A DNA stretch of 64,000 nt, taken from Massalongia carnosa (taxonomy: Eukaryota). A program made the translations under genes and the position numbers. Location of the stretch: contig OZ287072.1 of assembly GCA_965645245.1 (NCBI GenBank), forward strand, positions 1,922,001 to 1,986,000. The letters run 5' to 3'. Shown here one piece after another: positions 23,947 to 53,158 of the stretch (position 1 is the stretch's first letter; every line of letters begins with the position of its first letter). The notes under the pieces were generated by a model, which saw nothing but the letters and a program-made list of their open reading frames with translations, was not told the DNA's origin and made no database searches.

Positions 23947-25249
23947 TAAAATATGCGGGAAAGAGAATGAATGACTATATGGATGATGGTGAAAATGATG
24001 GAAAAGGGAGCAGTTTTGAAGCAGCGACGATGGGGGAAAAGCTTACCGTTATCCCGACAGTGGATGGTTTTTAGGAGTATATACGTAGAGGCGAATGTCT
24101 CGAGGAAAATTCTGATAGCTGGGAAATCTCGCTTTCTGGAGCTGTAGCGGTCCTCAAATCTCATCGTACATGACTTTTTTTGTTTTTTTTTTCCGTTGGC
24201 CGCAATCATTTTCAACGTCGCCTTGAGCAACTCTCTTTTCCCCCCCTAGCCACCCCCACCCGCTGTAGTTTCCGCATCCCTCTTTCTCCAATCACCAGCC
24301 CCTATCCCGGCTTCTGACCACCCCAAAAAGCGGAACCACAGACAGTAAGTAGTTAGTTCTTCAAAGCCCTTGCTTTCCTCCCTTCAAAGCTGCTCTCATC
24401 TGTGATTTTCACTGAAGGGGGGATGATCCAGTGAACGACGATATATACTGGAGAAAGCCGGCAATGAAGCACCATACAAATTTTTTTTTAAATGAAATGG
24501 CCTTATATGAACAAGATAGGTCGAAGCGTCGCCAAAGGAAAGTAGAAGGGCAACACAAGTAAAAAATAAAAGTTTGATTCTTATTTCTTTCGTGGCAAGT
24601 TATTTCTAGGGCTAGGTGAGAAGAGATTTCGATCAATGTTTTTTGGTATTTTTATATATAAATAGATTTTATTACTCCCGAGTAAGAAACGAACGGATAG
24701 ACTTCTGGGCGACACCTAGCGATTTCCTAGTCCTCGATATGAAAATCTTGGTTCAGCGCGATGCGAGGTCCTCCAGGTCTCGCGCATTCAAGTGCATGTA
24801 CACCCTAGGTGGTTTGATAGCGACTCGAACACGGCTCTTCCATAAATAGCCAGGGAGAAGAATGGTAGATAAGGCTGGTAAGATTACAGATTGTTCCTTT
24901 GCGAACGATGAAAATTTGAGAGTAGCACGGGATAGAAATAGCGAGAGGGAGAGCAGGCCATGTGCAAGGACTCAGGGGTAAAATGCGCTGGTGGGCCGGA
25001 ATGTTTTAGCAGAAACTGAGCAAAAAAACAAACACCCTTATACGCGGTTCCACGATGTACAATCAACAACATTTGAGCTCATACAGTCGAACCCCGCCAC
25101 AACGATGGTGGCGTTTTACCAAAATAATTTCGTTATAGCGGGTTTTTCGTTATATCGGGGGAGAGGGAAAATCATGGTAAATTTACTACTTTGCCCCCCT
25201 AAAAACCCCCAATTCTCCCCCTTTGTCCCCAGCAAATACCCAAGTGCTT

Positions 25250-26396
25250 AGAGTGGCTTGTTTTTGACTCTTTTGCCGTCTTTCAAACAGCCCCCGTTCA
25301 TGTCTTCGTAATTGACGAAGCATGTCTATATCGCCTTCAACTGCTATTCTTCATGCAGTCTCAGAATCCTACAAGCCTCCTATGCTTGACTCACCGTTAT
25401 AACAGATATAACATTCATCTCTTCATTCGTTTCAGCGAGCCTTTCCTGCTCCGCATATCGTGAAACGACATCATTTATAATGTCTTCATTCGTGTCCCCT
25501 ATAGCCTCCTCGAGCGGGTTTATAAATTGATGAATGTTCATCGGCTCTTCTATTCTATCCATGACCTGCATCTGACGTATGTTTTGTGTAATCGTTTCCA
25601 AAACAGTCTCGAACTCGATTCATTCCGAGGTTCTTGATTGATTAAAGAGTACTGAACCTCAATCAATGACTCCTGATCGCCCTCAGCAGTTCTGTATGAG
25701 CAGCTTACTATGAAAAACACATCTTATCCTGCTTCTGATCGGCGTGCCTCTCAGTATCAAGAGATCGATCAGGTGCCATTTTTCAATAAAGCCCTGTTTC
25801 ATTCATGTTATATGTAAACGTCTTTGACAGCATATTAAGATACTAATTTACGAAGATCAGTCATTATCTGCTGTATATTTTCACTTTGATCAGCTGAACC
25901 AGCCTCGCCATGATAAATGCGTTGTTTGAGTTCTCGTCGTCTTTTAAATCGATCTAGCTAGTCATTGCTCCATTTCGGAGTGGGAATGCCTTCATACTAA
26001 GGCAGTTTGTTTCACAATTCGATGACCTTGATTCGTAGCACTTCAGCATTAACAGTGAGACTGACCTGTTCATATCGTTGCTTTCATTCGAACAAAGCAT
26101 TTTTTTAACCCAGGTCATTTGAGAATAATCTCTCATTTGATTGAGCTCGCCTCCTCTTTATCATTCAGATAAGCATATTTGGAACTGAGAATCTCGTTGA
26201 TAAATACACTCCCAGGCACATAATTATACTCCCTTTTCCACCACATGCGACAGTCGTTCTGAGTCACTTTATCCTTTGAATCATCATTGTACCAGTCCCG
26301 AAGAGCTTTTCGCTGAATATTTGTGATTCCATGACGGGTTTTTTTTCGGGGGGGGGAAATTGACAAAGACATGAAGGCAGGCCATTCTCGAGACAT
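25250..26396 (-). pseudogene. CENP-B/Abp1-like transposase remnant
   Basis: N-terminus RHGITNIQRKALRDWY...WWKREY...INEILSSKYAYL (HTH) and C-terminus MNIHQFINPLEEAIGD. The middle is broken by stops and the DDE region appears largely deleted. Confidence 0.75.
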
Positions 26397-26446
26397 ATTT
26401 ACAGCAGAATCGTAGCAAATATATAACAGCTTTAGACTGAGACGCG

Positions 26447-27915
26447 ATGAACATTCAACTCGAAAACACGTTCGTGATCGCGCACGCGGAGCAGAGAGAT
26501 CAACTGCTGTACAAGATAGATGACTATCTGATAGGCATAGGAGACGGAGGGGAACCGGAGGGAACAGGGATTCTAGAGGAGGTGAAAAATTTTCTCGATA
26601 ATCAGAGAAGCATCGACAACGACAACGAAAACATACCGAAGCCCATTCACGACACCCTGACTGAAATACAAAGAAGTCTAGCCCGTATCGAAAGTGCTAA
26701 GACAGCCACAAAAACCACAAACAGCTATTCCGCAGCCGCCACCAGAGGTCAAGCCTCCGAGGCCCCCCCGATTCCCCGCCGCACCAAGCCAATTACTTCT
26801 TCAAAACAAACCGAACCCTCACCACAAGAAGTTCGTCAGGCAAGAGCAATGACCGTAGTCATTTCCAGCGCAAGCGACAAGGAAAAAATAAAGAACATGC
26901 CCACAAAAGATCTCGTGGAGACACTACAAGCAGAAACGGAGGGGATTCGGGGAGTATCGCGACTCATCAGCGGAGATCTCAAAATTCACACTGAATCACT
27001 AGAAGTCAAAAAGACTCTACAACAAAAGTCGGAATGGACCCGAAAAATAGCCGACTCAGCGGCGATTAAGACACGGACATACTCAGAGTAAATGGTGTCA
27101 AGATGGAACACATCAAAACCGCCAACCAATCGCAGGCCATAGGGTACCTGCAGACCGCTAACGCATGCCTGCACCCGGACCTGCAGATAAAGAAAATAGC
27201 CTGGTCCACCAGGGCTATAAGGGAAAAGAAAGCGTTCTCCACGCTACATATGGAAGTCGCCACCGCCGAAACGGCCAATCGGGTTATAGCCGAGGGTCTC
27301 ATAATCGACTATGAAATCAAAGACTGTGAAAGATTCACAAAGGAATGCACCATGACGCAATGTTTTAATTGTCACAAATATGGTCATATAGGTCGATCAT
27401 GTCCCAACCCCACCGCCTGCGGTCACTGTGCTGGGGCTCACCCTAGCACCGAATGCAACATGGAAACAACAGGTAGATATCGAAGATGTGCTGCATGCAG
27501 TGAAAAGGGATACGAAGCCTAGTCAACATCCTGCGAAATCAGGAAAGTCGAAAAACGCAAAGCAGAGAGGGCCATGCAAAAACGGGTCCCATTCTACCCA
27601 GTAGTCGCCCCCGTACCGGCCCCGTTCAGGTTCCAGAGCGAAAACATCAACCCGGTCCTTGGCAGCACAAACAGCAAAAAGAGGAAAACCGCACCCCCCT
27701 CCAATACCCCCCCGAATCCCCCACGAACGGGAACATCCTGGGCTGACACGGGCATCATGAATCCAGAAAACATGACAAAGGCCCTTGCAAAACCTGTTGT
27801 AGGTAGACCCCCACTCAGACCCCGAGCTGTATCTACTGCCCCGGCGATAATCAGAGCAAACAACACCACCAACGACCCCTCGACCTCCCAGGCCGAATCA
27901 ATGGACGTCCTATGA
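26447..27915 (+). pseudogene. LINE A ORF1 (gag-like)
   Basis: CFNCHKYGHIGRSC, CGHCAGAHPSTEC, CAAC knuckles. Frameshift near 27090 and in-frame TAG at 27520. Confidence 0.88.
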
Positions 27916-30046
27916 GGGACACGAAATCTCTCTCCATATTGCAGTACAATGTCAGAAATGACAGAGTGAGTACAATGTTACCCCTCTTAGCCGATCCGAA
28001 CACTCAAGACTATGACATTATCGCAATTCAGGAACCCTGGCGCAATCCATCTATTTCTACCACGTTAAGCTCTCATCAAAGTGGGTTTCATTTATTATAT
28101 CGCCCAAATGGAGACACCAGAGTGTGTTTCTACATAAATGATACTATTGACCCTGATAGCTGGGAAGTAGAGTATCCGTCGGCCGACATGTGCACCCTAA
28201 AAATTCGAATGAAAATTGGAAACACATCAGACGTGATCCACATCCACAATGTGTATAATCCCTCTCCCATTTCCTATTCTTCTATAGACAGCCCGTCCAC
28301 GCTAGCAACAGTGAAACGCCAATTAATTGCAGAGACAAAACACATTTTACTAGGCGACTTCAACCTACATCATCCATTGTGGAATCATTCGTCGAGGCCT
28401 ACTCAACATGCGGAGTCGGAACAATTACTGAACATAAAAGAAGAGGCAAATCTATCACTAACACTTCCAAAAGGCACCATTACATGGGAGGCTAGACAAT
28501 CGTCTAGCACAATCAATCTTGTATTCATGTCAGAAGAATTAACGGATAGACTAGAACATTGCATGTCAAGACCGGAACTCAATCAGTCGTCCGATCACAT
28601 TCCGATCTCCACCCGAATTGCGCTGAACAGTGAGGTTCAAACAATCAGAGAACGCAGGGCCTGGAAACTGACGAACATGAGAAAACTGAGAGAAGCGGAA
28701 AAGAGGGCGCCCCCCCCGAAGACCCCCCCGATCCCCCGCCGAAATCGATGCTTACACTGTGTCAATTCAAAAATTTCTTCAAGAAGTGATAAAAACCTCT
28801 GTACCTTGGGCTAGACCCAGTAAGTACGCCAAACCCTTTTGGAATGATGAATGCAGTGTTATCACGAAAGAAACTCGTAGGCTCAGACGTGTCTGGTCCA
28901 ATTCCAGAGACATTTCTGATTGGATAACATACACAAAATCCAATCACAGAAAACAAAAAATCATTCAAAAGGCTAAAAGACTGTCGTTCCGCAAGGAAAT
29001 AGAAAAAGCCACCGAATCGCCTACTGGTCTCTGGCGACTAGCCAAATGGGCGAAAGACAAAAGTGACCAGACAAGAGAAATTCCCAAAATGCCCAATCTC
29101 GTTCGAGACGACCAAGTAGCAGAGACGTTCGAGGAGAAATCGGACATACTAAAACAGAAATTCTTTCCACCCGCCCCTCCGGCCGACCTCAGCGACATAG
29201 AGGGTTCATTTTACCCAGCCCGCCACAATGTCCAATGATCATAACCAAACTAGAGGTGATGGAAGCCATACGCCGACTCAAGCCCGATACGGCCCCGGGT
29301 CCGGACGGAATAGCCAACAGAATTGTAAAGGCATGCTCGGAAAAGCTAGTCGAATTACTCACCCCACTGTTTCAAGCATGCGTAGAACAAGCATATCATC
29401 CTCGTGCATTCAAAACCGCCAACACAATCACGCTCAAGAAAACAGGCAAGGATGACTATTCGGCCCCGAACGCCTATCGACCCATAGCACTCCTAAACAC
29501 GCTTGGAAAAGTAATGGAATCCATCATGTCACAAAAAATAACCCATCTAGCGGAAACCCACCGACTCCTGCCGACACCCAGATGGGCGCCAGACGAGGAA
29601 GATCAACCGAATCTGCACTAGAATTGTTGACTGAACAAATTCATACAGTGTGGGGCCAAGGCACAGACAAAGTAGCCACATTATTGAGCATGGACGTAGC
29701 AGGAGCCTATGACACAGTGACACATCGAAGACTGATTCACAATCTTCGCAAAAGGAAAATCCCAAAATGGATCACTGACTGGGTGAACAGTTTTCTGAAT
29801 GAAAGAACCACTACCCTGGCGATTCACAGCCGAGTCACGGGCATAGATAGATAGATAGATAGATATATTCTTACGCCGATATGTCACCGGCCGAAGGCCG
29901 GCCCATGCGGGATGGACTACTATGCTACAGGAAAACCTTTAATAGGAATAAAAACCCATTGCCAACGCTGCGCGTACGAGGTCCCAACGACCTCCAGCTG
30001 TGCTGCTCGTGTGCTTTTTCGATGAGTCCCTTGAATGAAAAGAAAA

Positions 30047-31860
30047 TTATTGCTTGTATAGCAAGCTTGCCGATAAAGAAAATTGCGCCAAAACGCCAGC
30101 TTCGATAATCCATCTCGTTACCTGTTTCAATGTTTTGGATGTTTCGATTATCGTACGATACTCGTTGGTATTTATACGCCGAAACAGCTCTTGTCTTCCC
30201 GTCATTAATGGGCAGTGCATGATTACGTGTTTGGCCGTTTGCTGGGGCCAACCACAGCTGCAGGCCGCCGTCGTCACGTTGGGAACTCGTCGTTTAAATA
30301 AAAAACTTGCCAGACCTATTTTTTCCGTGCGAATTTGGGTAGCTAACGCGCTTTCCGCTTTTGCCAGATTGTCGTGTATTTTGATTCTTCCTTTGGTTAA
30401 GGAAGCGCGCTGTGCTTCGGTGGGAAAGGGTACGCGATCTTGATATGCTTTCCAGGTTGTCTGCCATTTCGTTTTGTAATGCGCTTTTGTGGCTTGCGTG
30501 TGAGCGCTGCGACTCATCCTTACTGCATTGGCTGTGAGCATGTGTTGCTCCGTAGGCGTGATCCAGGGTGGGCGCGGCGTTGGGGCTGCGGTGGGTATGG
30601 CGCTGATCACTGTGTTTTTGGCCCATTCGTGCTTGAGCATTCCTGGGGTCGGTTTCGGCGATCTTTTCTTGCCCGCTTTTCCGCGCAACTTGCGTTCTAT
30701 CTCCTTGCAGAAAGACGAGATGAGTCTCGTTTGCCCGGCGGTTCGTTGGCGATATCTCGCTTTGACTTGTAATTCTTCCAAATGCGATTCTATAGACGTC
30801 ACGTGCGTTTCGGTTTCCAATACTGGAATCGGGGTGGCCCGAAATGCACCCGTTATTGTTCGCAAGCACTTGTTTTGCATGACCGCCAGCTTGCTCGTCG
30901 CGGCTTTGCTTTTCCCTATTTCTTTCGGTGTGTGCCATACGGCGGATGCGTAGGTCATTGCCGGACGAACGACCGCAATATAAACCTGTCTGGCCTTCGA
31001 GAACGAGGCTCCCCATGTGGACGCGGAGATCCTGGTCAGTGCACCCGATTGTTTCGTCATTTTTTCTTGAGTTTTCCGTATATGGGCTCCCCATCTCAGT
31101 TTGGTGTCGATTTGTAGACCCAGCACCCTGATATCCGGTTTGGGTTCGATCGTTTTTGTGCTTATCCTGATGGTGGCCGTCATGTCGAATTTTTTCGGAT
31201 TTCTGGACAGATGAATAAGCTCGTATTTGCTCGGGGCAAACACGGAGCCGTGGCGTAAGGACCATCTCTCGCATTCCTTGTGAATTCTTTCTAGCGTTCT
31301 GCAGTTTTCCTCGGTGCTTTTGCCGTATGCCAGAACGTTGACGTCGTCTACGAAGCCCAGTGAGCTTGTATTCGTGCCTGGTCTTTGACATATTTCCAGC
31401 AGGTCTGCGTTGTAGAATAAATATAGAATCGGGGAAATGGGAGAGCCCTGGGGGATCCCTGTTCTCACATCGAATACATCGGTGGTGCGTCGTTGGATCG
31501 TAAGCGTTGTCCTTCTTTCGCTCAAGAAGCTCTCGGTCCAATCGGTAATCCATTTGGGAAATCTTTCTCTTTCGCAGATTGTGTATCAATCTTTGGTGAG
31601 ATACGGTATCGAACGCTCCTGCTACGTCCATGCTGAGCAGTGTTGCCACCTTGTCGTTGCCCTGGCCCCAGACCGTGTGCACCTGTTCCGTGAGAAGTTC
31701 CAGTGCCGATTCGGTGGATCTTCCTCTACGAGCCCCCATCTGCATGTCGGGTAGCAGGTTGTTGCTCTCGGCCATGTGGGTGATTCTTCTTGCGATCACT
31801 GCTTCTAGTACCTTGCCCATTGTGTTCAATAACGCTATCGGTCGATAGGCTTTCGGGGCT
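30047..31860 (-). pseudogene. LINE B ORF2, C-terminal half (RT + CCHC), 5'-truncated, one frameshift near 31560
   Basis: PKAYRPIALLNTMGK, DVAGAFD, GIPQGSPISP, GFVDD, CSCGW...HVIMHC. Related to, but clearly diverged from, LINE A ORF2. Confidence 0.92.
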
Positions 31861-32837
31861 AAGAATGATAAAATAGAGTTGACATCTCCTTCGTGAAGTC
31901 TCTATCCCAGTTTTCGTTCATCTCACTGGTGCGTTTTACGGCCCAAGACTATTGATGAATTCTACGATTGGGGTGAACGACGTCCCTTTCGCCCAGGTCA
32001 AACCCAGTTTACTCCTTAAGCATATATCAAGGGCGAGTCTAGCCGTAGCCCATGCGCCGGCGAACCAACGGGGTCTCGTTACGAGCGAGATAGACATTCC
32101 CTGCTCTATATACACCGACATGCGCATACTGTCCTCTCGGGCTATGCAGACGGTCTCCGTACGGTGGCCGCCATTGCATACCACGCCTCACGGGTTTTTT
32201 ACGCCCACTTCGCGTTACTCATAAAGGTCTCCCGTTTATGAACCGACCATGTCTCGCAGGGGTTTCGACCACTATGCTCCTGACCAGGCAGTATAGTATC
32301 GATTTTCCGTCCCTACTAACCAAAACGAGTCGAGGACAACTCGGAGGGGTGCTCGTTTGAAATTCGTCTATTAGCTCAGGGCCTAGACTGTTATCAATTA
32401 ACGGGTTCCTCGTATATTGCCCTCTTCTTGTCCCAAGGGTGTCCTATTTGATGACTAGGTTGCCTCCACCATCCCCGGTACGACTCCGGTTCGGGCCGTG
32501 TTGCTCACGGTAGCCATCAATTGGATGGTTTTCATAACCCAAATCCCTTGTATCGTGTAGGGTGTGACCCTACACTATGTGTCTATATGTTTTATTTCTT
32601 TCAGCCGGAGGGCTCCGTGTTGTAGACGAAGGAGACCCGTGTGATAGACATAGCTGACCCGTGTCGTACGTCTTTAGCTCTCAGCCGATGACTGCATGAA
32701 AGGACTTGAACCTTTAAGAGTATGACCGAACGTTGTTAACGAGGTCTATGAAAATCTTATTAACGAGGTCTTCGAGAACAATATTAACGAAGTTCCGCTG
32801 AACTCTTTTCATTCGTTTTGTGATCCATCGAGGTCTA

Positions 32838-33024
32838 CCCGTGTCAAATCCACACCATGCCCGTGTCAAATCCACACCATGCCCGTGTCAAATCCACACC
32901 ATGCCCGTGTCAAATCCACACCATGCCCGTGTCAAATCCACACCATGCCCGTGTCAAATCCACACCATGCCCGTGTCAAATCCACACCATGCCCGTGTCA
33001 AATCCACACCATGCCCGTGTCAAA
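32838..33024. repeat. Perfect 22-bp tandem array CCCGTGTCAAATCCACACCATG x8.5
   Basis: Direct reading, period 22. Confidence 0.95.
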
Positions 33025-33155
33025 ATATATTATTTTCAGCTGATGACTGCTAGAAAGGCCTTGAACCTCTAAAAATATGTACTCCGATATTAACGGGGTG
33101 CAGATCTGTCTTAACGAGTCCCCGCAGAACCCCCTTCACAGGGACGTGTTATTGA

Positions 33156-33292
33156 TTTGTGACTGTGTTTTTTGTGACTGTGTGTTTTGTGACTGTGTGT
33201 TTGTGACTGTATGTTTGTGACTGTGTGCTTTGTGACTGTGTGCTTTGTACAACGTGTGATTGATGACTATGTGTTTTGTGACTCTGTGTTTT
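33156..33292. repeat. Degenerate 15-16 bp array, TTTGTGACTGTGTG-like, ~9 units
   Basis: Direct reading. Confidence 0.9.
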
Positions 33293-33732
33293 CCTCGATT
33301 TTATTTAATAGGCCGGGCCTATTAAATGGGATATTGTTATTCTGCTCCGAGATGGAGTTTTCTTGAGGTGACAGCATTCGCCCCGGTGCCTTTACGCGTT
33401 CTGTTGATCCCAGCTGATGACTGCATGGGGAGACTTGAACTCTCAGGAGCTAGAACGCGTGTCGACTGTGCCCGGGTGGGGGATGATGCGGCTCCTTTGG
33501 TCCACATCTTCTTCCAGCTGATGACTGCATGAAGGGACTTGAACCCTTAGAAGCATGGTGCAGGGACGCGCGCATTCTACCCCCCGGCGGTTGGCCTTCG
33601 TATCCTCTTCCGTACGTACGTCTGCGACGCGTGTGAACGCGTTAAATTAGCATTGTTTTGATGCGAAGAGATAGGAGCAAATCTATATGTTTGACGGTCG
33701 CCCCACGGTGAGGCCTTTGGCGTCTCCGTGGT

Positions 33733-33972
33733 GAGGACCGATGGTGTAGAAGGAGGAGGACCGATGGTGTAGAAGGAGGAGGACCGATGGTGTAGAAGGA
33801 GGAGGACCGATGGTGTAGAAGGAGGAGGACCGATGGTGTAGAAGGAGGAGGACCGATGGTGTAGAAGGAGGAGGACCGATGGTGTAGAAGGAGGAGGACC
33901 GATGGTGTAGAAGGAGGAGGACCGATGGTGTAGAAGGAGGAGGACCGATGGTGTAGAAGGAGGAGGACCGAT
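33733..33972. repeat. Perfect 23-bp tandem array GAGGACCGATGGTGTAGAAGGAG x10 plus 10 bp
   Basis: Direct reading; abuts the right TSD. Confidence 0.95.
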
Positions 33973-35806
33973 CCGAGTCACGGGCATATTCGATGTAAAA
34001 ACCGGAATCCCACAAGGCTCCCCCATTTCTCCTGTTCTTTATCTGTTCTACAATGCAGACCTACTAGACATATGTGAAAGACCAGGCAGCAACACGAGTG
34101 CTCTAGGCTTCGTAGATGACATCAATGTGCTAGCATACGGAAAAAGCACCGAAGAAAATTGCAAGACGCTAGAGGTAATTCACAAAAAATGTGAAAAATG
34201 GGCAGGTCGACATGGTTCAGTCTTCGCTCCGAAGAAATACGAATTGATACATCTGTCAAGAAATCCGAAGAAATTCAACATGTTCACTGTTATTCAAATA
34301 GGAAATAACATCATAAAACCAAAGACAGACATCGGAATTCTAGGACTTCAAATCGATTCAAAATTGAAATGGGGTGCTCACACAAGGAAAATCCAGGAAA
34401 AAATGACAAAACTATCCAGGGCATTGACAAAAATATCCACCTCCACATGGGGCGCCACTCTTCTAAAGGCACGTCAGGTTTACACCGCCGTAGTCCGGCC
34501 GGCCATGACGTACGGCTCCACCATTTGGCACATGCCAAAAGAAATTCAAAAATCAAACGTCATCTCAAACAAATTGGCTGTCATACAAAACAAATGTCTA
34601 AGAAACATAGCCGGAGCCTTCAAAGCAACGCCCATAGCTATACTAGAAGCAGAGACATTTATAGCCTCAATTGACATACATTTAGATCAACTACAGGCCC
34701 AGACCAGACAACGCCTGTGTCGAAATGGCCAAAAGAGTTTCACCACAAATGCATGCAACAAAATAGCCAATAAACTTCGAGGTCGGGCAGGCCGCAAGAG
34801 GGCCCCAGTCATCACTCCAGGAACGCTGAAATACGCCTGGGCCAAGAGAATCACACCGGAGGCACATAACCCTCCAACACCAACACCAAATCCACCATGG
34901 GCCGAATCCCCCCCGAATCTCACCCGAGAAATAGGGGAGGCACGCGCCGCTCATAACAAAATAACTGCTCAAATCAAAAAACGACACACAGTTGCATGGC
35001 AGGCCTCGTGGAGATCATATCAGGAACGCACACCCGTTCCCACCCCGGCACAATCAGGTTCACTCTCCAAAAAACGCATCAAATTGCACGAAACTCTAGC
35101 CAAAGCGGAGAGCGCGCTGGCCATTCAGATACGCTCAGAAAAGATAGGCCTAGCCGCCTTCCTACATAGACACCGAGTCCCAGACGTCTCGTCCCCGAAC
35201 TGCTCATGCGGCTGGCACAAACAGACCGCAAAACATGTGATCATGTTTTGCAAACTCAACGACAACAGAAAAACTCTGCTAAATACGATAGGCACAAACA
35301 ACTATCGATTAATCACTGAGTCATCTAAAGCAATGAAATTAGTCACAAAGTGCCTAATGAAGACAGGTTTGTTGTCACAATTTTCGCTGACAGCATAGCA
35401 TCTATACTGCTAACAGTAGGCATGCTTTGTTTCATTTTTCATACTTGTCTTAGGTCAAAGGTTTTTTCATGGAGCACACGGCTGGGACCCGGAGGGTCCT
35501 CGGTCGGACACAGGATTGCATGGTTTTTCTTCCTCAAAAGGTTTTCCATGTACTATAAAACTAGATAGACTCGCCCGCATGTACCGGCCTTCGGCCGGTA
35601 CCACATCGGAATAAGAATAATCATCATCATCATATGACACCTCGCTATAACGAACGTCACCAAAAATCTGAAAATAATTTTCGTTATATCGTTATGGAGG
35701 GTTTTTCGTTATAGCGAGGGTTTTACCATATAACTACAAAAAATCCGAGAAATAAATTCGTTATACGGAACTTCCCTATAGCGGGGTTCGACTGTATATC
35801 ATATTG

Positions 35807-36622
35807 TTAAAAAAACGGTTCGACAACCCGATCCTGCATAAGATGATATATACAAGATATTCCCGGTTGCTGTGCTAGACTGGACTGATCAACAACTTAG
35901 CCTATCGCGTCATGGATCTGCTTATTGCTGCGTCAAGCTACTTACGAAATGGGCTACACAACAAAAGTCCTGGAAATATCCGCAAGGAGGCCGATAGTCT
36001 TACATATAGGGTTATTTATGCGGCCGATGGGGAATGGTTGCGCATCAGGATGGGACATACAAGGATAGCACCAATCCACTTGAAGGAACTCTACGATGCC
36101 AAAAATATCAACTTGATCACCCAGAGGTCCATCGCAGCAGACACGTATAGGATACTCCAGATTCGTGCAACCATCATTATCCTTAGGTTGGTCAGAGAAG
36201 TTCGGTATAGAAATTGGGGAAGGCGAAGGCGACGGCGACGGTGAAGGATCTAGAAAGAAATTTCGAAGATCTGGGAGAACGGGCGCCTTGATTCTTGCTG
36301 GGCATGCTGTTTCGTCCCACTCCGATTCGTCCCGACTGCGCAGTTTGCCGTTTGGTAGAAAACTGGCACAAGAGTCTTTCGCTTCCGCCGCATTGGCTAA
36401 GGGGGCCGGGGTGCCTTGATCTGATGTGAAGCCTTCCAAGTGAGCTGTTTTTGGGATATTCTTATCAGCTAGATTGGAAGCGATAAGATTCGTTTTCCGG
36501 TCCGCGGGAATTTCGCTTGAGGCAAGAGTGCCTATCGGCGACATACGCGGGTCTATTGGTGTCAAGGAACTTACTGCGGTCGTTAATATTGGGATAAAAG
36601 AAAAGTAGGTCAGAATAAGCAT
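35807..36622 (-). CDS. Small secreted cysteine-rich protein, 3 exons
   Basis: Signal peptide MLILTYFSFIPILTTAVSS. Exon 1 ends ...RVCCDGP...DWCYP; GT-AG introns give exon 2 YYRPPCGYFQDFCCVAHF and exon 3 SSLAQQPGISCIYHLMQDRVVEPFF-stop. Confidence 0.65.
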
Positions 36623-38479
36623 GACCAAAGAATTAAGACAAGGCTGTCAGTCAAAGCCTCTGCGTTCCATCGCCATGGACTCGCTACATATATGACTGCG
36701 CATCTGAATGGTCGGGCGGGGAAATGCCAACACGAGCAACGTTTCTGTGTCAGAGCTAACCCGGGACTGGAGTGGCACTAGGACATAAAAAAGATAATTA
36801 TGCGCGGAAGCCTGAAGATTCCGATAATGAAAGCGGCTCTCAGATGTTTTCTGAATCTGCCTCCGTTCAATATTATTCGTTCCCATCTCTCCTAACTTAT
36901 TTTATTAGTATATACTCATCCTACTGTTCTCTATCAGGAGACAAGCTCGTTCACTTATAGAAGAATAGAAAAGCTTTAGACAGGACTACTATTCGTCAAA
37001 GATACTAAAAATGCCGAGGAACACACATCGGCGGCTCGAAATAACAAGCTCTTCAGAGATAACTCGTAGTTCAAGGTTTGCGCAAGAAAATGCCTAGCAA
37101 TTTGCCCGTTTAGGGCGGGCCGAGTAGTCAGAGAAGTATCTATCCGTATCACTAATTAGTTTCCCTTAGGTCTACTACGCCTGGGTTTATGGAGGATTAC
37201 AAACGCCCATAACCGTGAGACAGAATTATGATAGCGCCGCAAGTATCGCGTTTCCGATCGTTCTTACATCAACTCTTCCAAAATTTCTGGACTCGCCATG
37301 CAGTTAAAACGGAGCGAGAAGAGAAGGACTTTAGAAGCTTTCCCGAGGCCGAAGAGCTGTGGAGAGGCTGCGATGTAAAGACTTCCGTTGTTATCTGCGG
37401 GAAGGTTGTCAATAGTCTTGTCAAATAGATCACATTTCATTCTTTCAGTACGATCTCGGATGCAACCTTAACCCCTTCGTCGAATACCAAATACGGGCAG
37501 ATACAGGTGTAGAACAGCCAAAGATAAAGCAGTCATTGATTAACTAGGTTAGTTGTGCACTGCACGGTGGACTCATCAGTGTAGTCCAAGCGTTCGCACT
37601 TATTGAGAGTGCGAAATAAACGACTCGACGATCACCTTTAACAAATCAGATATTCGTTTCTTCCGTCCACTATCAAGGTTCCCACGACAAAAGATGTGGA
37701 AGTTTCTGCAATCGCCTAGACGATGCAACGCAAAACACAGACTGGTAGGTTAATTGAAAGTGACGTTGATGCTGAAATGCATCGAAGGTCTGGATTAATT
37801 TTAGGATTTGCACGAACGAAGCTAACTAACAGGTCTACTTCGGGGTGTTATCCTCGGGGATTCTAGCATACATGTTGACAAAGTGCCGGGTTTTAAAACA
37901 TGCTTATAAAGAGGCATAGAGTGTGATACTGATTTTCATGAATCCTAAGTGTTAGAATTAGCACGGTACACCCTCAAGGTTTGAAAATTCCGTTAGTCAC
38001 TATTGGAGTGTGGGATTAAGGGTTTTGACACCAATAACTGAGGTTTGAGTACCTCCAAGAAGAATATCTAGAAATCCATAAAAGATTAAGGCAAGAAAGC
38101 AGAAATATTGATTAACAATATAGGTATGTCGGATGATAACGAAGAATCAATGCAAGAGCAAAGGAGCCCATTTTTGACAATGTGTAATCTAAGAAAGGTT
38201 GTAAAACTGGCGGTGGCAGGTGGCTAGAAGTCGCCATAGGTAAAGCTACGATCGCGCTTAGCGCCAGCAATACTTAAATGTGACACAATACCTCTCCATC
38301 CATTACAGTTGCGCCGGGAAATTTGCCTCCCATAACCTTCTTCCAATCATATGAAGACGGTCAAGATGCTCTCCTAAAGTGTGATTGGTCATGCCATCCC
38401 GCTGTATGAACCAGCTCCGAGTATTTCCTTGCATGATTGGCCACGAAGGCACCGAATTCCTTGAAGTCCTCTTCAAAAT

Positions 38480-40162
38480 GCTAACTGACCTTCACGTCAC
38501 CTCTCGTCTCAACTCCTACATCGATCTTACCCCGCCTGTCATCTCTTTCGCTGAGCTGATATCTAAGTGAAAGATATATAAAAGATGGCTTCACGGTCTT
38601 TGGAGAAAACCACTCGAAATCTGGGGTAAAGTAGTGTACTGTCAAGCTTTGGAATGGCGGTCCTGATTTCCACTTCCGCATAGCGTGAAAAATAACGAGT
38701 TTAGTTTTACATTCGGCTTCGAAGGTCAAAGTTGTAGTAGTTGTGCAATTTGGTTTTATGTTCAAGGTCAAGTCATGAAGAGCCGAGAATGATACAAGAG
38801 GAGTCTGAAGAAGTTATGTCAGCTTAATACATTATGACCAAAACAGGTTCGAGTTTTGCTACCCAGTCCCAATTCCACCGGACATCTATATTCAGGGATG
38901 AAATGCACGGATATAGGTGGAACAGCTTCCATAATTGAGAGGTTTGCCAAGTGGCGTCTGAATTTCCGTCCCTTTCATTATGCCCGATATGGTACTCTAG
39001 GAACCTCAGATTAGGGCCATATGGAGAGAAAAGGTTCGATGAAACACCCAGGGACGATAGTAATGCAGGATCAATCGTATCTTGTTTTTGGCGCAGGTCT
39101 GTGATGTAGAGCTCCTCGATTTGTGGATAATCTGTTGCAAATCTCCAAAACTGGTAGTCGCGAAAGAGTGTGACTTTCAAAACTCGAAGAGCTGGAAGCT
39201 CCACAAGATAGGAATACAAATTTAAACCGAGGCCCGGGATTTTTGCTTATCGCTGTTTTGGATATCCAAGCATCGGATTTTTGTGCAATTGATCCCATTC
39301 AAGATTTGTTGTGTAGCGATCCACAGATACCTGAAACCTGTAAATTTTACCTCTTCTAAAATAGGAAAGTAGTCGTAGTCCTGATTTGGTTTTGCAGGAA
39401 CCCAATGAGATGCTTGTTGAGAGTAGTCTTGTTCAATGGTAACATCAAGCACCCGGAGGTACGGACTTTCTAGCATCACATTCCGAAGGGCTAGAATAGA
39501 ACTGAGGTATAATCGTTTATGTAGCACTTGGAGTGATCTCAAGGTCGGAGGGAACGAAAGGGAGCATAATGTACCCATGTGGACCACATGTAGATGAAAA
39601 GAAGACTGTTGAACCTAGAGAGATTTCAGGAAATCTTCCAAGCGCCGATCATAAGCCAGCCATCTATATTTCTCGTTTGCTGTAAGTTCACATTCGCGAC
39701 TTCTGCAGGTCAAACATTCTAGGTATCTAAGGTCTCGTCGTACGGAGAATTGCGATAGAAAAATAGTAAGAGATGTAAGACTTACTTGAAAGAAGCTAGT
39801 TTTTGGACATGAGAAACAGCCTTGAGGACCTCTGGCTTGTATCCCTTCCGGCCCGTAAACTCCAGATTCAGAATTCTCAATTCTTTAACAAAAAATCGCA
39901 ATGGATCTTGCGGATCGGTTAACCGTCTAATCACGCACTGAGTGGACAAACTCCGACTCCGAGAAGAGTAGTCGATATCTATAGTCCGGTGGATGAATGG
40001 ATCAGCAAGAATACGAAAACGGTGAGAGGTATGATGTAAAGCCAGGAGTGAGAGGGGCGAGACCTGGCTTGTATTAGCATATCCTCGCACCGGCACAGAG
40101 TAGCTTACAAGGTGGAGAACGATATCGAGAAGTTCGTTTGGGAGAGAAGAAAAGTTTGCCAT
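38480..40162 (-). pseudogene. F-box/LRR-like protein, probably pseudogenised
   Basis: N-terminal F-box-like FSSLPNELLDIVLHL; LRxL repeats downstream; in-frame TAG stops near 39615-39670 and a frameshift in an A-run near 39240. The 3' end is uncertain. Confidence 0.6.
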
Positions 40163-40917
40163 GAACAGTATGTTATCAAAAAAATGGCATAAACCAGTAG
40201 AAATCCGAGAATAAAAAATAAATACCGCCTCAAAAGGATTGATTAGGGGTGATCTTGATCCGTCTCAAAAGCATGATGGAGTGTTCGTCGAAGAAGCTTC
40301 GCTTCACGACAAATGATTCAAAGCCACCGAACAGATACAACGGCCTGTTGAACAGGGTGGGCTATCTAGTTAGTTTGCACGGTGAAAGACAGAAGGCTTC
40401 CATCAGAATCGAAGGCGAATGGTGTCTCACAGGTTGGTTCTTTATATCAGATTGAAGACTCGATATTTATTCAGGATGCTCGGCCTATCCTCTCTTCACG
40501 AGTTCTCGCATGAATGAAGACTACATAATCCATCACCAGCTACCAGCACTTTGGACAACCAAAGACCATTTTCTTATTTAGGTATCCTTCGTCTCTCTTC
40601 AACATCATCGCGAACCACATGGATGAAGTTAACTAATAAACAGAAACCTGAATACCTACCCAGTTTTCTCACAATGAGCTTGCGTTGCCTTTGTTTTGCG
40701 TCAAATAGCCGCAGACAAAGACAGGGAGCATACCAGTGAGCAGAAGGGCGTATCCCATTACCATTTTAGTCGTTTTGCCGCAGTAAATTTTAGCGCATTA
40801 CAACTGGAGTAAATACGAGTAGCCTTAAGGGCAATACGCCGAATTTCTGTAAAAAGAATTCCTCAGGATTTGTTAAGAAACTCAGTACTGCAATAAAACT
40901 CTTCTCCGAATTAAAAA

Positions 40918-43007
40918 ATGCCCAAAGATCACAAGCAACGAGGGCGTCGAGAGGGAAAGAAACGAAAGCGTCAGGAAGATGATCTGTCTGTTACTTTGAA
41001 ACGACTAAAGTCTGAGGATATCGATATACGTAGTGATGGCAATGAAGACCATAGAAGTGATGGTCCTGACTCTAATGTGCCCTCTATTGAAATTCCTTTT
41101 TATGGTCTACTTGATGAGGGTGAGCAAGAGTACTTCAAGAGAGCAGACTCTATGCTCGAGCTAGATCAATTCAACGATGCTGAGGAGCGGACCCTTTTTG
41201 TCAATAGTGTCTACCAAGAAGCCCGTGGGAAAGAACTGAAAATTGTCAACAGCCAGTCTTGCTCAAGGCTAATGGAGCGATTGATCATGATGTCAACCGC
41301 CGACCAACTAAAATCCCTATTTCAGAAACTTAGCGGACAGTAAGGAAGTCTGCACAAATTGTGCAACTACTCACTAACTGCTGCAGCTTCCTTCATCTAG
41401 CCCAACATAGATTCGCGTCTCATTGCTGCGAGACCTTGTTCCTACAATGTGCGCCTCTTGTCACTCAAGAGCTCTTGGCGCCTTTAAGAGGAGAGCAACA
41501 AGCTAGCATAGAAGGAGAAGCCTTTGTGACGATGGAGAATCTCTTTCTCTACACGTTGAACGAGCTGGAAAACAATCTTGGGTTTTTGATAACAGATCCA
41601 TTTGCGTCGCATACTTTACGAGTGCTTCTTCTTGTACTGTCTGGACGACCGCTTGCGGATGTAAATACGACCGCACTGCTTCAAAGCAAGAAGAAGGAAA
41701 ACGTGTCCATATTAGTTGGAACTCTAAGCATCTCGGAAATGAGAACAATGTCGCGAACGGTCCCAGAATCATTTGGGTTGGCTGTCGAGAAGATAATCTT
41801 TAGGTCCGTGGCAGGCCTCGACACAACATATTTACGAGCTTTGGCAACTCACCCAGTTGCAAATCCAGTTCTCCAGTTTCTGTTAGTTTTAGAGCTCTCG
41901 AGCTCTGGAAAGCAAAAGGCGAAGGACCCTAGATCGTTGTTTCGAAAACTTATCCCAGAGGATTCGCCTGAACTAGACTCAAGTACGACATCATTCATTA
42001 ACAACTTAGCTTATGATACCGTTGGCTCACGTTTGCTGGAGGCGATCATAAAACATGCCCCGGGAAAAAGCTTCAAGATGTTGTATGGAACAATATTCGG
42101 TGATAAAATAGGAATCCTTGCCAAAAACGACGTTGCTGGGTTTATAGTTATCAAATTCCTCGAGCGACTAAGCAAAGAGGATCTGCACTCTGCAACGGAG
42201 CAAATAGGGCCTTTTATTGGTTTTTTGCTTCAGCGTTCAAGAACCTCGATTATAAAGACTTTGATTGAAAGATGCCGAATACGAGACGTGGACGTTCAGC
42301 CAATATCTGATGCAATTGTGCAAGCTTACGGCTCCAATGCTTCACATAGACTAATGGAAATGTTGAGATTAGATACGAGTAACACAGATGGTATGGCAGA
42401 AGATCGCAAGAGGCAAGTAGAGAAACAAGATGCAGCGAAAGTGCATGGATCTCTACTTGCTCAGTCCATGTTGGATACACCAGGAGTACTGCGTGGACTC
42501 ATCACGGATGGCTTACTGACAATGGATATCACTACGCTTATAATCGTCGCGAAAGATCGTTCAGCAAGCCGCATGCTACAATGCTCGCTGGCAGTTTCCG
42601 AGGAAAGTTTGAAATATCGGCGAGTGTTAGTACAACGCTTCTTTGGCCATATAACAGAGCTAGCTACCGATACGATAGCCTCCCACGTGGTAGATGAGTT
42701 TTGGACTGCTTCCAAGGGACTAAAATTTATTAGGGAACAGATCGCAGCCGAGCTTTTCAAGAACGAAGCTATAATCAGAGATTCATTCTCTGGACGGGCA
42801 GTGTGGAAGAATTGGAAGATGGACATTTACAAGACGAAAAGGCGTGACTGGATGTTCGGGGCCAAAGAAGCAGGAGATTCCAAAACCGGACTTGAGCTTG
42901 CAAGGGAGAGATTTGCTTCAACAGCAAGAATTAAGGGTCAGAACATCGAATCCAGGCTAAAGAAATCAACATCATCTAGAGCCAATGACAATACTGTTGG
43001 TTCCTGA
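40918..43007 (+). CDS. NOP9: Nucleolar protein 9 (Pumilio-like repeat 18S maturation factor)
   Basis: MPKDHKQRGRR, FYGLLDEGEQEYFK, GKELKIVNSQSCSRLMERL, HRFASHCCETLF, GRAVWKNW; intron 41340-41386. Confidence 0.9.
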
Positions 43008-43204
43008 TCAGAAGTTTAGCGGCTCAGTAGCGGAAGCTTATGCAAGGGTTGCTGATTGATGACGAATTTCACTCTGCATGGTAAATCTTTCTAGTCAAGC
43101 ACGACATTATTTTGAGATTTTTGTACTTGCAGAATCTGCGTTACCACCGATACAGCCCTGACACAGACAAATATTTCCCCAAACTAAGACTTAAAAAAAT
43201 TGAA

Positions 43205-52800: not shown

Positions 52801-53158
52801 ACGTATGATACTGGGCATTCACGCGGGAGCGGACAAAATTTTACAACATCAGGGATGCTGTTGCTGACCATCGTTACAGAACGGACGAGTATCCCCCCGC
52901 ACCTCGTCCCAACAAAGCGACAAGCAATCCGGATCCCCGGCGCAATCAGTGGTCGTCGCCGCCGCTAACGAGCAACGTGGAACCCAAAAATCCACGCTTA
53001 ACCATGAAAAACGCTCGCCGCAAACCGCCAACGCCGAGTCCCACAACGCAAAAATGGCGCGTATGGAGGCCACCGCGTCCCAAGGGTACGGTGGTGGCAT
53101 CCCCACCAAGATCGAGGAAGGTGTTGAACCGGGCCAGCAGGCTATGAAAATGCAATGA
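49809..53158 (+). CDS. wc-1: White collar-1 blue-light photoreceptor / GATA transcription factor
   Basis: LOV motif GRNCRFLQ, two further PAS domains, GATA finger CANCHTRVTPEWRRGPSGNRDLCNSC; introns 51295-51347 and 52685-52879. Confidence 0.96.

Follow-up and report, generated by a model that had tools for sequence, protein, structure and literature searches.

A chimeric insert joining a 5'-truncated LINE to part of a non-coding retroposon within an older LINE of Massalongia carnosa

In the window, that is, the whole 64-kb stretch of Massalongia carnosa DNA analysed here, a pair of target-site duplications (TSD) encloses a 4127-bp insert that lies on the minus strand within an older related LINE (LINE A). 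One part of the insert is the 3' half of another LINE (LINE B), and the other is a non-coding sequence, hereafter the partner. We believe that the insert probably results from a single event in which a LINE integrated a chimeric cDNA, copied from LINE B RNA and from the RNA of a non-autonomous retroposon, with a template switch as its most likely origin. A sequence-only reading had already seen here one LINE-made integration of a 5'-truncated LINE plus foreign non-coding sequence, similar to the MINE elements of Magnaporthe, and this core is supported by the TSD, by an insert-free paralogue and by the identity of the partner as a separate repeat.

Target site and host LINE

The host element and the limits of the insert are as follows.
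26435..35637, plus strand: host LINE A, with ORF1 from 26447, APE at 27807-28814 and an RT interrupted by the insert
29830..29845, unstranded: left TSD copy, CCGAGTCACGGGCATA, 16 bp, exact match, within the RT coding sequence of LINE A
33973..33988, unstranded: right TSD copy, 16 bp, exact match; the RT frame of LINE A picks up again here

The 16-mer CCGAGTCACGGGCATA occurs exactly twice in the 64-kb window (29830-29845 and 33973-33988, 0 mismatches), and no third site was found there with up to 2 mismatches allowed. With a chance expectation of 0.02, and with 0/100 shuffles reaching 2 copies, the exact duplication proposed earlier holds. An X1 contig belonging to a paralogous LINE A joins 29820 to 33973 plus 8 letters and carries a single 16-mer and no insert; its depth at this joint is 819, near the single-copy depth of that run (875). 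Insert-free copies of LINE A therefore exist and the repeated 16-mer is a genuine target-site duplication, which supports the view that one TSD reflects one integration event.

LINE A is decayed, with several private indels revealed by comparison with contigs (among them those at 28723, 29213 and 29570), and is itself nested inside another repeat, as X2 and X3 contigs join 26434 directly to 35638. Its nucleotide identity to LINE B is 70-73%, positions 33987-34596 being homologous to LINE B 31476-30867, and it ends in a 3' module (35576-35620) and a tail of the ATC type.

The LINE B portion and the internal junction

The LINE B side of the insert comprises these features.
29846..29865, minus strand: LINE B tail, a (TATC)5 microsatellite read from the sequence; (GATA)5 on the plus strand
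29866..30046, minus strand: LINE B 3' UTR, 181 nt, the last ~46 nt of which (29866-29911) are the conserved 3' module
30047..31858, minus strand: C-terminal ~603 codons of LINE B ORF2, stop at 30047-30049, with the entire RVT_1 and a Cys/His-rich C-terminus
31854..31858, minus strand: junction zone between partner and LINE B, contigs diverging at 31854 (X6) and 31856 (X2 record 12)

This portion of ~2.0 kb consists, in sense, of the last ~603 ORF2 codons, the 3' UTR and the tail, which adjoins the left TSD as had been proposed; because the TSD after the tail starts with TATG in sense, the border between tail and target is uncertain by up to 3 nt. The description as half a LINE is also accurate: judged against a complete 1120-aa ORF2 (P0018, APE plus RVT, with PKAYRPIALL near residue 518), ORF1, the APE endonuclease and the first ~517 ORF2 residues are missing. 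Another protein relative, P0016, is 95% identical to LINE B. The RT-bearing ORF spans two minus-strand frames (30047-31585 and 30294-31901), with matches to positions 96-204 and 7-106 of the 205 in the Pfam RVT_1 profile (E 1e-14 and 3e-10). The frame is shifted by an extra base at 31559, which is missing from all covering contigs of X1, X2 and X3 (3/3 runs) and is private to this LINE B copy. X2 contigs show 3 differences from LINE B over 670 nt and a single one over 459 nt, and LINE B is young, with intact relatives.

The 3' module, which runs from the block ATCCCGCATGGGCC through a GC hairpin (TTCG loop) to ATATCGGCGTAAGAATA, is common to LINE B, LINE A and an element of another organism (L001, described below), and its pattern occurs in the window only at 29886-29909 (minus) and 35576-35599 (plus). 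Thirty X1 contigs have the same LINE B 3' end and then diverge at 29911, and many contigs of the source species match LINE B over its last ~46-66 nt only.

At the junction, the sense letters are ...TTAGCCCC for the end of the partner and (CC)GAAAGCC for the start of LINE B. The microhomology would be 2-5 nt depending on the native LINE B sequence at this site, where LINE A reads GCCCCGAA and LINE B relatives encode T/S-P-K. Folding predicts a CUAUCG/CGAUAG hairpin immediately 3' of the junction in LINE B RNA. The transition is as abrupt as first described, homology to the host LINE stopping at 31859 and contigs leaving the window sequence at 31854 and 31856, but it is not in mid-RT: the break coincides with the N-terminal border of the Pfam RT domain, at ~residue 518 of the 1120-aa ORF2.

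It is very improbable that an assembler wrongly joined two repeats at 31854. Although multi-copy repeats lie on both sides and no contig bridging 31854 was found among the matches listed, the outer ends would not make up a single TSD unless everything between them were one insert, and they consist of a LINE tail at one end and the native 5' array of the partner at the other. Moreover, an overlap of at most 5 nt is too short to mislead an assembler, and the single-copy flanks match X1 contigs identically over 9137 nt.

The partner as a repeat of its own, more abundant than LINE B

The partner and its main internal features are listed below.
31854..33972, minus strand: partner, 2119 bp from the 5' part of a highly repeated non-coding retroposon, its native 5' end adjoining the TSD
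33733..33972, minus strand: 5'-terminal CT-rich 23-bp array, 10.4 perfect copies of the unit ATCGGTCCTCCTCCTTCTACACC (sense)
33515..33557, minus strand: first of four hairpin modules, with further ones at 33411-33450, 33037-33080 and 32682-32724
33156..33292, minus strand: 15-bp array, 9.2 copies, 83% matches, ACAGTCACAAA-type in sense
32838..33024, minus strand: 22-bp array, 8.5 copies, 100% perfect

As the sequence-only reading had it, the partner lacks recognizable coding sequence, with a Pfam match above cut-off in 0 of its 12 ORFs and no LINE protein remnant found. A ribosomal DNA origin was rejected, no Rfam family (rRNA included) reaching the gathering score in the partner; an LTR was rejected as well, and one weak test gave no support for a viral or viroid-like RNA. 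The segment is indeed rich in repeats, holding also a 24-bp array of 2.3 copies, and the 22-bp array varies in copy number in a VNTR-like manner (X1 and X6 contigs omit 154-155 nt, or 7 units). Each hairpin module has a 5-bp stem and a TTCAAGT loop resembling a tRNA T-arm or B-box, followed by an invariant CAGTCATC(A/G)GCTG. All 4 matches to it in the window lie inside the partner (chance 0.01), and among these 4 copies plus 4 from L001, 39/40 cells pair and 4/5 pairs covary, a result equalled by 0/500 shuffles. The claim of structure therefore applies locally, to discrete hairpins, but not to the whole segment, as only 3 of 14 pieces of 150 nt folded with z <= -2 (mean z ~ -0.6, versus 0/14 and a mean of +0.2 for the LINE B part).

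Summed contig depth, which is not equal to copy number and is biased toward young families, was 240k-433k in the partner bins versus 33k-53k in the LINE B RT for X1 (single copy, 875), 101-296 versus 25-45 for X2 (single copy, about 5) and 1045-1727 versus about 550 for X3 (single copy, 27). In the 3/3 runs with both parts, depth in the partner thus exceeded that in the LINE B RT by a factor of 2.5-8. An 8164-nt X6 contig carries 31854-33745 at ~99% identity (19 differences in 1738 nt) followed by 799 nt unlike the window, and X2 record 12 (depth 128) departs from the window sequence at 31856. The native continuation past the junction is known in the source species over 30 nt only, and a full-length native copy from that species did not appear among the contigs. 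A homologue in another organism (L001 373-2279; L001 and L002 are one locus of that one organism) stands alone as a 1907-bp element with an exact 13-bp TSD and an A-rich tail; none of its 7 ORFs has a Pfam match and it shows no LINE protein similarity. It is collinear with the partner from the 5' repeats, where it has two copies of a 23-bp repeat with the CGAT..CCTCCTC core of the partner array, up to the junction point, and then runs ~750 nt more to a 3' end that has ATC(C/T)CGCAT(G/A)GGCC and a hairpin in common with LINE B. The native 3' part missing from the insert amounts to about 0.75-0.8 kb. Other copies thus continue differently at the junction: those in X6 and X2 are not fused to LINE B there, and L001 is stand-alone with its own TSD. 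Together with the depth in three runs, this agrees with the proposal of an abundant, LINE-adapted, non-autonomous long retro-parasite.

LINE 5' UTRs can bear tandem monomers, as in mouse L1, and the 2.1 kb could in principle be LINE B's own monomer-bearing 5' UTR, in a copy internally deleted for ORF1 and the first half of ORF2. LINE A, which begins just 12 nt upstream of its own ORF1 ATG, leaves the 5' UTR of the clade invisible in the window. We consider this origin improbable, as L001 is complete from TSD to tail without ORF matches or similarity to LINE A/B proteins, and the greater depth of the partner runs opposite to the 5'-truncation gradient of LINEs. The X6 contig does have an ATG 11 nt past the junction point, with the frame open across the junction, but 0/12 ORF1 homologues start with the residues that follow, and the partner has no nucleotide similarity to LINE A beyond the RT. 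Hence, the Rfam, Pfam and LINE protein searches being negative and a 5' UTR disfavoured, the partner did not reduce to rDNA, a known family or another ordinary sequence.

Origin of the chimera and comparison with known systems

The polarity of the insert is consistent, the LINE tail adjoining the left TSD and the 5'-terminal 23-bp array of the partner the right one. Target-primed reverse transcription (TPRT) truncates 5' ends; a partner with a complete 5' end but without its 3' end is therefore not an independent TPRT insertion. We infer a template switch that took place during this event and not earlier in a progenitor, together with trans-mobilisation of the partner by way of the 3' module that it shares with the LINE. 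In a single TPRT event with the older LINE A copy as target, a LINE of this fungus would have begun on LINE B RNA, at its (TATC)n tail and its conserved 3' module, and copied the 3' UTR and the C-terminal ~603 ORF2 codons. On reaching the N-terminal border of the RT domain, the enzyme would have left for a second RNA, putatively transcribed from an abundant retroposon, non-coding and non-autonomous, that parasitises the same LINE clade, landing ~2.1 kb from its 5' end with an overlap of 2-5 nt and copying through to that end; second-strand synthesis would then have produced the 16-bp TSD.

The position of the acceptor site inside the partner counts against a template switch here, and fits an earlier chimeric transcript equally well, for example by read-through from a partner copy containing a truncated LINE B. 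There is a smaller but real likelihood that the insert is the daughter of a pre-existing chimeric master, whose ready-made RNA was retrotransposed in trans with no switch in this event. Such a master could have arisen by DNA-level recombination, or by earlier insertion, in sense, of a 5'-truncated LINE B into a partner copy; its transcript would extend from the partner 5' region to the LINE B 3' end, making the element a member of a MINE/LAVA-like family. Short overlaps are typical at the 5' junctions of truncated LINE insertions, and a nested insertion gives an internal acceptor point with ~750-800 nt of the partner 3' part missing, as seen here. Since the chimera retains a 5' region with repeated conserved modules plus the LINE 3' module, it should, by its sequence, be mobilisable. 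Nevertheless, a second copy of the junction was not seen, none being present in the 64-kb window, in X2 and X6 the partner contigs that dominate carry no fusion to LINE B, and a first metagenome scan with a 25-mer located 20 nt from the junction gave no match. The insert differs in its internal acceptor from the classical chimeras, in which, according to PMC2104539, the 5' part is a full-length RNA and the jump is to the 3' end of the acceptor.

Whichever its origin, the term undescribed system was too strong, and by analogy the chimera is best taken as a new family within a known, MINE/LAVA-like kind of retrotransposon chimera. PMC2104539 describes, for Magnaporthe MINE and in mammals, chimeras whose parts share one orientation, which are flanked by TSDs and have a 5'-truncated LINE on their 3' side. 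As in MINE (WEIRD-MGL) of Magnaporthe grisea, a non-coding partner at the 5' side is joined directly, without change of orientation, to the 3' part of a truncated LINE, with a microsatellite-type LINE tail, the whole unit within one 10-20 bp TSD and a fungal host (PMC2104539). WEIRD is described there as 1.1 kb, always full length and without solo copies, whereas the partner here represents 2.1 kb from the 5' side of a longer, mostly unfused retroposon, and the likeness drawn between the two is one of architecture. At least 31 MINE copies, junctions without microhomology and a GCC*A/U switch motif for MGL are also reported (PMC2104539), versus one documented copy, a possible 2-5 nt and a C-rich stretch with GCC that only approximates the motif in our case. 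Bipartite and tripartite chimeras with a non-autonomous element (WEIRD-MgSINE and WEIRD-MgSINE-MGL) are also mentioned for Magnaporthe (PMC2104539).

The hominoid VNTR composites SVA and especially gibbon LAVA (PMC3287187, PMC5174737, PMC4432496) are similarly non-coding, non-autonomous and kilobase-sized, with CT-rich 5' repeats, internal arrays varying in copy number, and a TSD and tail; the 3' domain of LAVA is a LINE (L1) fragment, as in the fungal chimera. They belong to an unrelated host and LINE clade, and no evidence points to an assembly of the fungal partner from other known repeats; the 3' end of the fungal element appears to mimic the specific 3' module of the LINE and not to depend on poly(A). 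In this it resembles the Mg-SINE/MGL pairs, which share 3' ends under stringent recognition (PMC2104539): the block, hairpin and tail of L001 are like the LINE A/B module, and the many contigs matching just the LINE B end fit the same pattern. However, at 1.9 to about 3 kb the element exceeds the size of a SINE, less than 0.7 kb, no tRNA, 5S or 7SL head was detected in the partner by ARAGORN and Rfam, and its sense-strand T-runs would stop Pol III. Finally, in mammalian U6/L1 and other L1 template-switch chimeras a LINE RT likewise switches from its own RNA to a second one during TPRT, leaving a TSD and a 5'-truncated LINE at the 3' side, but there a small nuclear or cellular RNA serves as acceptor and is copied over its full length (PMC2104539), whereas here the acceptor would be the long RNA of another mobile element, entered internally.

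A 4127-bp insertion in LINE A

The 64-kb window contains two exact copies of the 16-mer CCGAGTCACGGGCATA (29830-29845 and 33973-33988), and no third copy was found there at up to two mismatches (chance expectation 0.02). Both copies fall within the RT coding region of LINE A, an older LINE on the plus strand. We aligned the contigs of four public sequencing runs (X1, X2, X3 and X6) to window positions 25001-45000. In the single-copy flank, X1 showed no differences over 9137 nt, X2 none in three pieces of 566-735 nt, and X3 61 differences and 68 gaps over 9261 nt, so that all three contain DNA of the window's organism or of a very close one. One X1 contig, in which only eight letters separate 29820 from 33973, carries a single copy of CCGAGTCACGGGCATA and no insert; it represents a LINE A paralogue (depth 819 vs 875 for single-copy sequence). 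Because this insert-free paralogue has only one copy, the exact 16-bp duplication described in the sequence-only reading is a genuine target-site duplication (TSD), and 29846-33972 represents one insertion of 4127 bp. We regard an assembly artefact as extremely improbable.

LINE A could be delimited from contigs of X2 and X3 in which 26434 adjoins 35638 and whose depth far exceeds the single-copy level. These contigs show that it extends from 26435 to 35637 and is itself nested in another repeat.

Features of LINE A
from 26447, plus strand: ORF1, 214 aa to the stop
27807-28814, plus strand: APE endonuclease (Pfam)
either side of the insert, plus strand: RVT_1 pieces (Pfam)

The multi-copy repeat around LINE A comprises 25001-26434 and 35638 to about 35770. 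Its part at 25001-26434 reached 50-80 times the single-copy depth in X1. Since LINE A sits in this repeat, the nesting has three levels, the repeat holding LINE A and LINE A holding the insert. The LINE A frames are broken by 1-nt indels at 28723, 29213 and 29570 that are private to this copy relative to the others.

The insert lies on the minus strand and, in sense, consists of non-coding sequence (the partner, 33972 to 31854) followed by the 3' half and tail of LINE B, a second LINE with 70-73% nucleotide identity to LINE A. The LINE B part begins in sense at 31858/31853 and retains the last ~603 ORF2 codons. Its Pfam match to RVT_1 enters the 205-position profile at position 7 and begins in the 17th codon past the previous stop, right at the junction. 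In P0018, a database ORF2 protein of 1120 aa (APE plus RVT) that is 88% identical to LINE B, the motif PKAYRPIALL sits at about residue 518. This places the break at the N-terminal edge of the RT domain, and not in mid-RT as had been read from the sequence. The endonuclease, the first 517 ORF2 residues and ORF1 are absent. A single extra base, at 31559, is the only lesion in the remaining ORF; it is missing from the contigs of all three runs covering the site. The ORF is followed by a 181-nt 3' UTR and (TATC)5. As the TSD in sense starts with TATG, the border between tail and target is ambiguous by up to 3 nt. The 3' part of the chimera (29846-31858) is, then, a 5'-truncated LINE that ends in its own tail, and it differs by less than 1% from contigs of other copies. 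Within the window, the LINE 3' module was present at the ends of LINE A and LINE B only. Thirty X1 contigs matched just the last ~46-66 nt of LINE B and then diverged; the 30-nt consensus of these loose ends at 29911 had no window match at up to three mismatches. ORF2 proteins of the LINE A/B type (APE plus RVT_1, about 1100-1140 aa) with 53-78% identity are widespread in the protein database, in entries whose stated sources are Lasallia (a lichen fungus), Podosphaera (a powdery mildew) and Xylaria. An RNase H domain, of which LINE A and LINE B show none in Pfam, occurs in some of the more distant proteins.

The partner and its stand-alone homologue

The partner is 2119 bp long, and none of its 12 ORFs of at least 60 aa on both strands reached the Pfam cut-off. 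Similarly, tblastn of 11 LINE A/B protein pieces against it gave nothing below E 0.1 save self-overlaps. It is rich in repeats.

Repeats of the partner
33972-33733, minus strand: CT-rich 23-mer array, 10.4 perfect copies, starting directly at the TSD
within the partner, minus strand: 15-bp array, 9.2 copies
33024-32838, minus strand: 22-mer array, 8.5 perfect copies
32736-32790, minus strand: 24-bp repeat, 2.3 copies
within the partner, minus strand: hairpin module of ~43 nt, four copies, which are all four matches in the window (chance 0.01)

There are also two perfect palindromic hairpins, at 33306-33328 (11-bp stem, TTTAATAGGCC/GGCCTATTAAA) and 32558-32578 (9-bp stem, GTGTAGGGT/ACCCTACAC). 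The X2 contigs break on either side of the former (33298 and 33329), probably as an assembly effect of the palindrome. The sense strand holds at least six occurrences of CGTTAA(T/C/G) between 32700 and 33130, partly within the 24-bp repeat, and this cluster may represent candidate factor-binding sites. The partner had been described as non-coding and structured. The ORF analysis agrees with the first term, and the second holds for discrete hairpins but not overall: the folding z averaged about -0.6 over 14 partner pieces vs +0.2 over 14 LINE B pieces, and of the three partner pieces with low z one consists of a tandem array. We rejected a globally structured RNA. The sole Rfam match, to a Streptococcus sRNA at 32300-32343, scored 24.8 bits (E 0.02), below the gathering score of 50, and was taken as chance.

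To establish how common the partner is, summed contig depth was compared with that of the gene block at 41334-52867 (plus strand), which encodes a NOP9-like PUF protein, a PLP-dependent decarboxylase, an ATP-dependent DNA ligase and a white-collar-1-like photoreceptor and served as the single-copy reference.

Summed contig depth (not a copy number; the 88% threshold favours young families)
X1: single-copy about 875; LINE B RT 33-53 thousand; partner 240-433 thousand
X2: single-copy about 5; LINE B RT 25-45; partner 101-296
X3: single-copy 27; LINE B RT about 550; partner 1045-1727

By this rough measure the partner reaches 275-495 (X1) and 38-63 (X3) times the single-copy depth, and one partner site was covered by up to 40 distinct contigs. 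The partner family is multi-copy and dispersed, and other copies are not fused to LINE B. Thus, an 8164-nt contig of X6 contains 31854-33745 with 19 differences over 1738 nt and seven 22-mers fewer, and continues past the junction point with 799 nt unlike the window; likewise, X2 record 12 (depth 128) departs from the window sequence at 31856. With three mismatches allowed, the 30-nt native continuation of the partner did not match the window anywhere. X6 lacked the single-copy flanks of the window, and the depth of its partner contig was only 3.3, in a family whose summed depth is several hundred times that of single-copy sequence. The simplest explanation is a trace of the window's fungus in X6, present at very low depth; horizontal transfer is a less simple one. 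In the same X6 contig, 27 nt that match the LINE 3' hairpin (29882-29908) lie 548 nt upstream of the aligned 5' part of the partner and in the same orientation, which may reflect a partner copy just behind the tail of another element, or head-to-tail copies.

Scanning metagenome contigs with the module pattern yielded two contigs that were 100% identical over their 1290-nt overlap and hence represent one locus of another organism (L001). No loci came from a metagenome scan that used a 25-mer lying 20 nt from the junction, or from a scan of viral contigs with the module pattern; the viral collection consists mostly of DNA phages and is a weak test of viral RNA. The L001 element (373-2279, minus strand, 1907 bp) lies between exact 13-bp direct repeats (360-372 and 2280-2292) and ends in an A-rich tail containing A15; that is, this homologue stands alone, with its own TSD and tail. 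None of its seven ORFs had a Pfam match, and no similarity to LINE proteins was found. At its 5' end there are two copies of a 23-bp repeat sharing the CGAT..CCTCCTC core of the partner array, and the module is present in four copies. L001 and the partner are colinear to the very junction point, with 74% column identity and perfect blocks of 18-30 nt, and beyond it L001 extends ~750 nt further. Its 3' end has in common with those of LINE B and LINE A a block ATC(C/T)CGCAT(G/A)GGCC (12/14), a GC hairpin and an ATCG..GTA.GAAT.A stretch. The TSD, the tail and the LINE-like 3' end suggest that the partner family is a non-coding retroposon, putatively a non-autonomous parasite of the LINE A/B clade, of which the window holds only the 5' 2.1 kb. 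A long non-autonomous retro-parasite was among the candidates named in the sequence-only reading, and the abundance, the unfused copies and the TSD-flanked, ORF-less L001 element fit it.

The eight module copies (four in the window and four in L001) align as a 5-bp stem with a TTCAAGT loop, followed by 8 nt and an invariant CAGTCATC(A/G)GCTG. In the stems, 39 of 40 cells pair, and four of the five pairs change on both sides. This covariation was matched by none of 500 shuffles, and slid registers were 37-78% paired, although the counts are not independent events because the copies are paralogues. The stem-loop resembles the T-arm of a tRNA, or a B box (consensus GGTTCRANNCC), and the module may be an RNA element, a site for TFIIIC or another factor, or a relic of a tRNA-derived ancestor. 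These hairpins are the only tRNA-like feature of the partner. ARAGORN found no tRNA genes in the window, and Rfam searches of the partner and L001 gave no tRNA with E <= 1; L001, in addition, had no Rfam matches of any kind. With no tRNA head and a length of 1.9 to about 3 kb vs less than 0.7 kb, we rejected a tRNA-derived SINE.

Junction and origin of the chimera

The partner and LINE B are joined in the same orientation, that of the partner being taken from its colinearity with the tailed L001, with an overlap of at most 5 nt and no filler. In sense, the join reads partner ...TTAGCCCC and then GAAAGCC, and LINE A has GCCCCGAA at the equivalent site. The closest relatives of LINE B encode T/S-P-K at the junction, and not A-P-K as the LINE A proxy does, so that 2 nt of overlap are certain and 5 nt are the maximum. 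Directly 3' of the join, a 6-bp hairpin is predicted in the LINE B RNA. The 5' end of the partner looks native, with its terminal 23-bp array as in L001, and its 3' ~750-800 nt are missing (X6 continues for 799 nt and L001 for ~750 nt). A 5' end that is complete and a 3' end that is not rule out an independent target-primed (TPRT) insertion of the partner piece. Since the partner's 5' array adjoins the second TSD copy and the LINE tail the first, the 4127 bp entered as one cDNA. A single integration of a LINE fused to a non-coding sequence, as proposed from the sequence, is thus supported by the one TSD, the polarity of the parts and the insert-free paralogue. The insertion is recent, as indicated by the perfect TSD, the perfect arrays and the less than 1% difference of the LINE B part from other copies.

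Most likely, as is usually proposed for such joins, the LINE RT switched from its first template, LINE B RNA, to a second RNA, that of the partner. The latter would be a natural acceptor, since the same RT must handle partner RNA routinely. As the chief alternative, a chimeric transcript could have been made earlier by nested insertion and read-through and then retrotransposed. There is room for this because the acceptor RNA was entered internally, unlike in classical chimeras, and yet we think it rather unlikely. It is very unlikely that the 2.1 kb are the own 5' UTR of an internally deleted LINE B: the L001 homologue carries no ORF1 or any LINE remnant, none of 12 LINE A ORF1 homologues starts with the residues that follow the junction in X6, and the depth gradient is the reverse of that of LINE 5' truncation.

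Template switching by a LINE RT is documented for Magnaporthe MINE, WEIRD-MgSINE-MGL and mammalian chimeras in PMC2104539. There, the five general criteria for a chimera include a 5'-truncated LINE as the 3' part, a join in the same orientation, one direct repeat of 10-20 bp and a full-length 5' part. Like MINE-type chimeras as described in that text, ours has a truncated LINE at the 3' side, one orientation and one TSD (16 bp); their 5' part is of full length, whereas here the partner lacks its 3' ~750-800 nt and so the 5' part is incomplete. According to the same text (PMC2104539), truncation and switch sites are random in mammals and lie at GCC*A/U in M. grisea MGL. The switch site here (...GCCCC|GAAAGCC) is C-rich with GCC upstream, but is followed by G and not A/U, and approximates the MGL motif only. 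WEIRD has no solo copies in that description (PMC2104539), whereas the partner does. The chimera works like a MINE-type LINE chimera but is not MINE itself, from which it differs in its host and in the properties of its partner.

The partner resembles a long SINE-like parasite. As in SVA and LAVA, the VNTR composite retrotransposons of hominoids (PMC3287187, PMC5174737 and PMC4432496), it has CT-rich 5' repeats (23-bp array) and a variable internal array (22-bp, of which contigs skip seven units), and the chimera has a LAVA-like, LINE-derived 3' domain; as those sources define the family as hominoid-specific, the likeness is an analogy and not membership. SVA and LAVA are, in addition, assembled from other repeats; the likeness of the partner to them is one of architecture. 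Our literature search found nothing specific on a fungal or lichen equivalent, although one may exist in print or in repeat libraries. Tentatively, the partner could be the founder of a class of kb-long fungal retroposons that are non-coding, bear VNTRs, function as counterparts of SVA/LAVA and are conserved between lichen-associated fungi. The four covarying modules with their invariant CAGTCATCAGCTG box would then be the working parts (binding of TFIIIC or another factor, promoter, or recruitment to the LINE RNP), and the chimera a LAVA-like exchange of the 3' domain with the exploited LINE; taken as a whole, we hold this proposal to be unlikely, if conceivable.

Significance and other genes in the window

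The chimera would be a clean natural case of a LINE RT joining its own RNA to that of its non-autonomous parasite, with an exact TSD, an insert-free paralogue, a young and near-intact LINE part and an acceptor that has an identifiable stand-alone form. It is thought that SINE-like parasites gain or renew LINE-matching 3' ends through such joins, and that LAVA or MINE composites likewise arise. The chimera does not amount to a system of a new kind. It had been suggested that the partner might represent an undescribed one; the LINE-like 3' end and the TSD-flanked retroposon homologue make it identifiable in kind. To our knowledge, long non-coding LINE parasites are little described in fungi, and the partner is of modest interest as an ORF-less retroposon of 2-3 kb with perfect VNTR-like arrays and a module covarying between two organisms. 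For the annotation of lichen-associated fungi, it means that a high-copy family will escape protein-based TE finders.

Pfam identified several fungal genes in the window, namely those for a white-collar-1-like PAS/GATA protein, NOP9, an ATP-dependent DNA ligase and a PLP decarboxylase, and 41334-52867 (plus strand) is an ordinary single-copy gene block. The white-collar-1-like PAS/PAS/PAS/GATA photoreceptor is split over two frames, probably by an intron. A carboxylesterase (COesterase) at 9077-10359 (plus strand) is spread over two overlapping frames that match positions 25-142 and 143-335 of the profile, owing either to an intron or to a frameshift. Finally, where the window begins, its sequence is richer in AT (GC 0.38) and holds a DNA transposon remnant at 687-2081 (plus strand), a 464-aa open frame matching DDE_1 (pogo/Tc1-like transposase) at E 7e-12.
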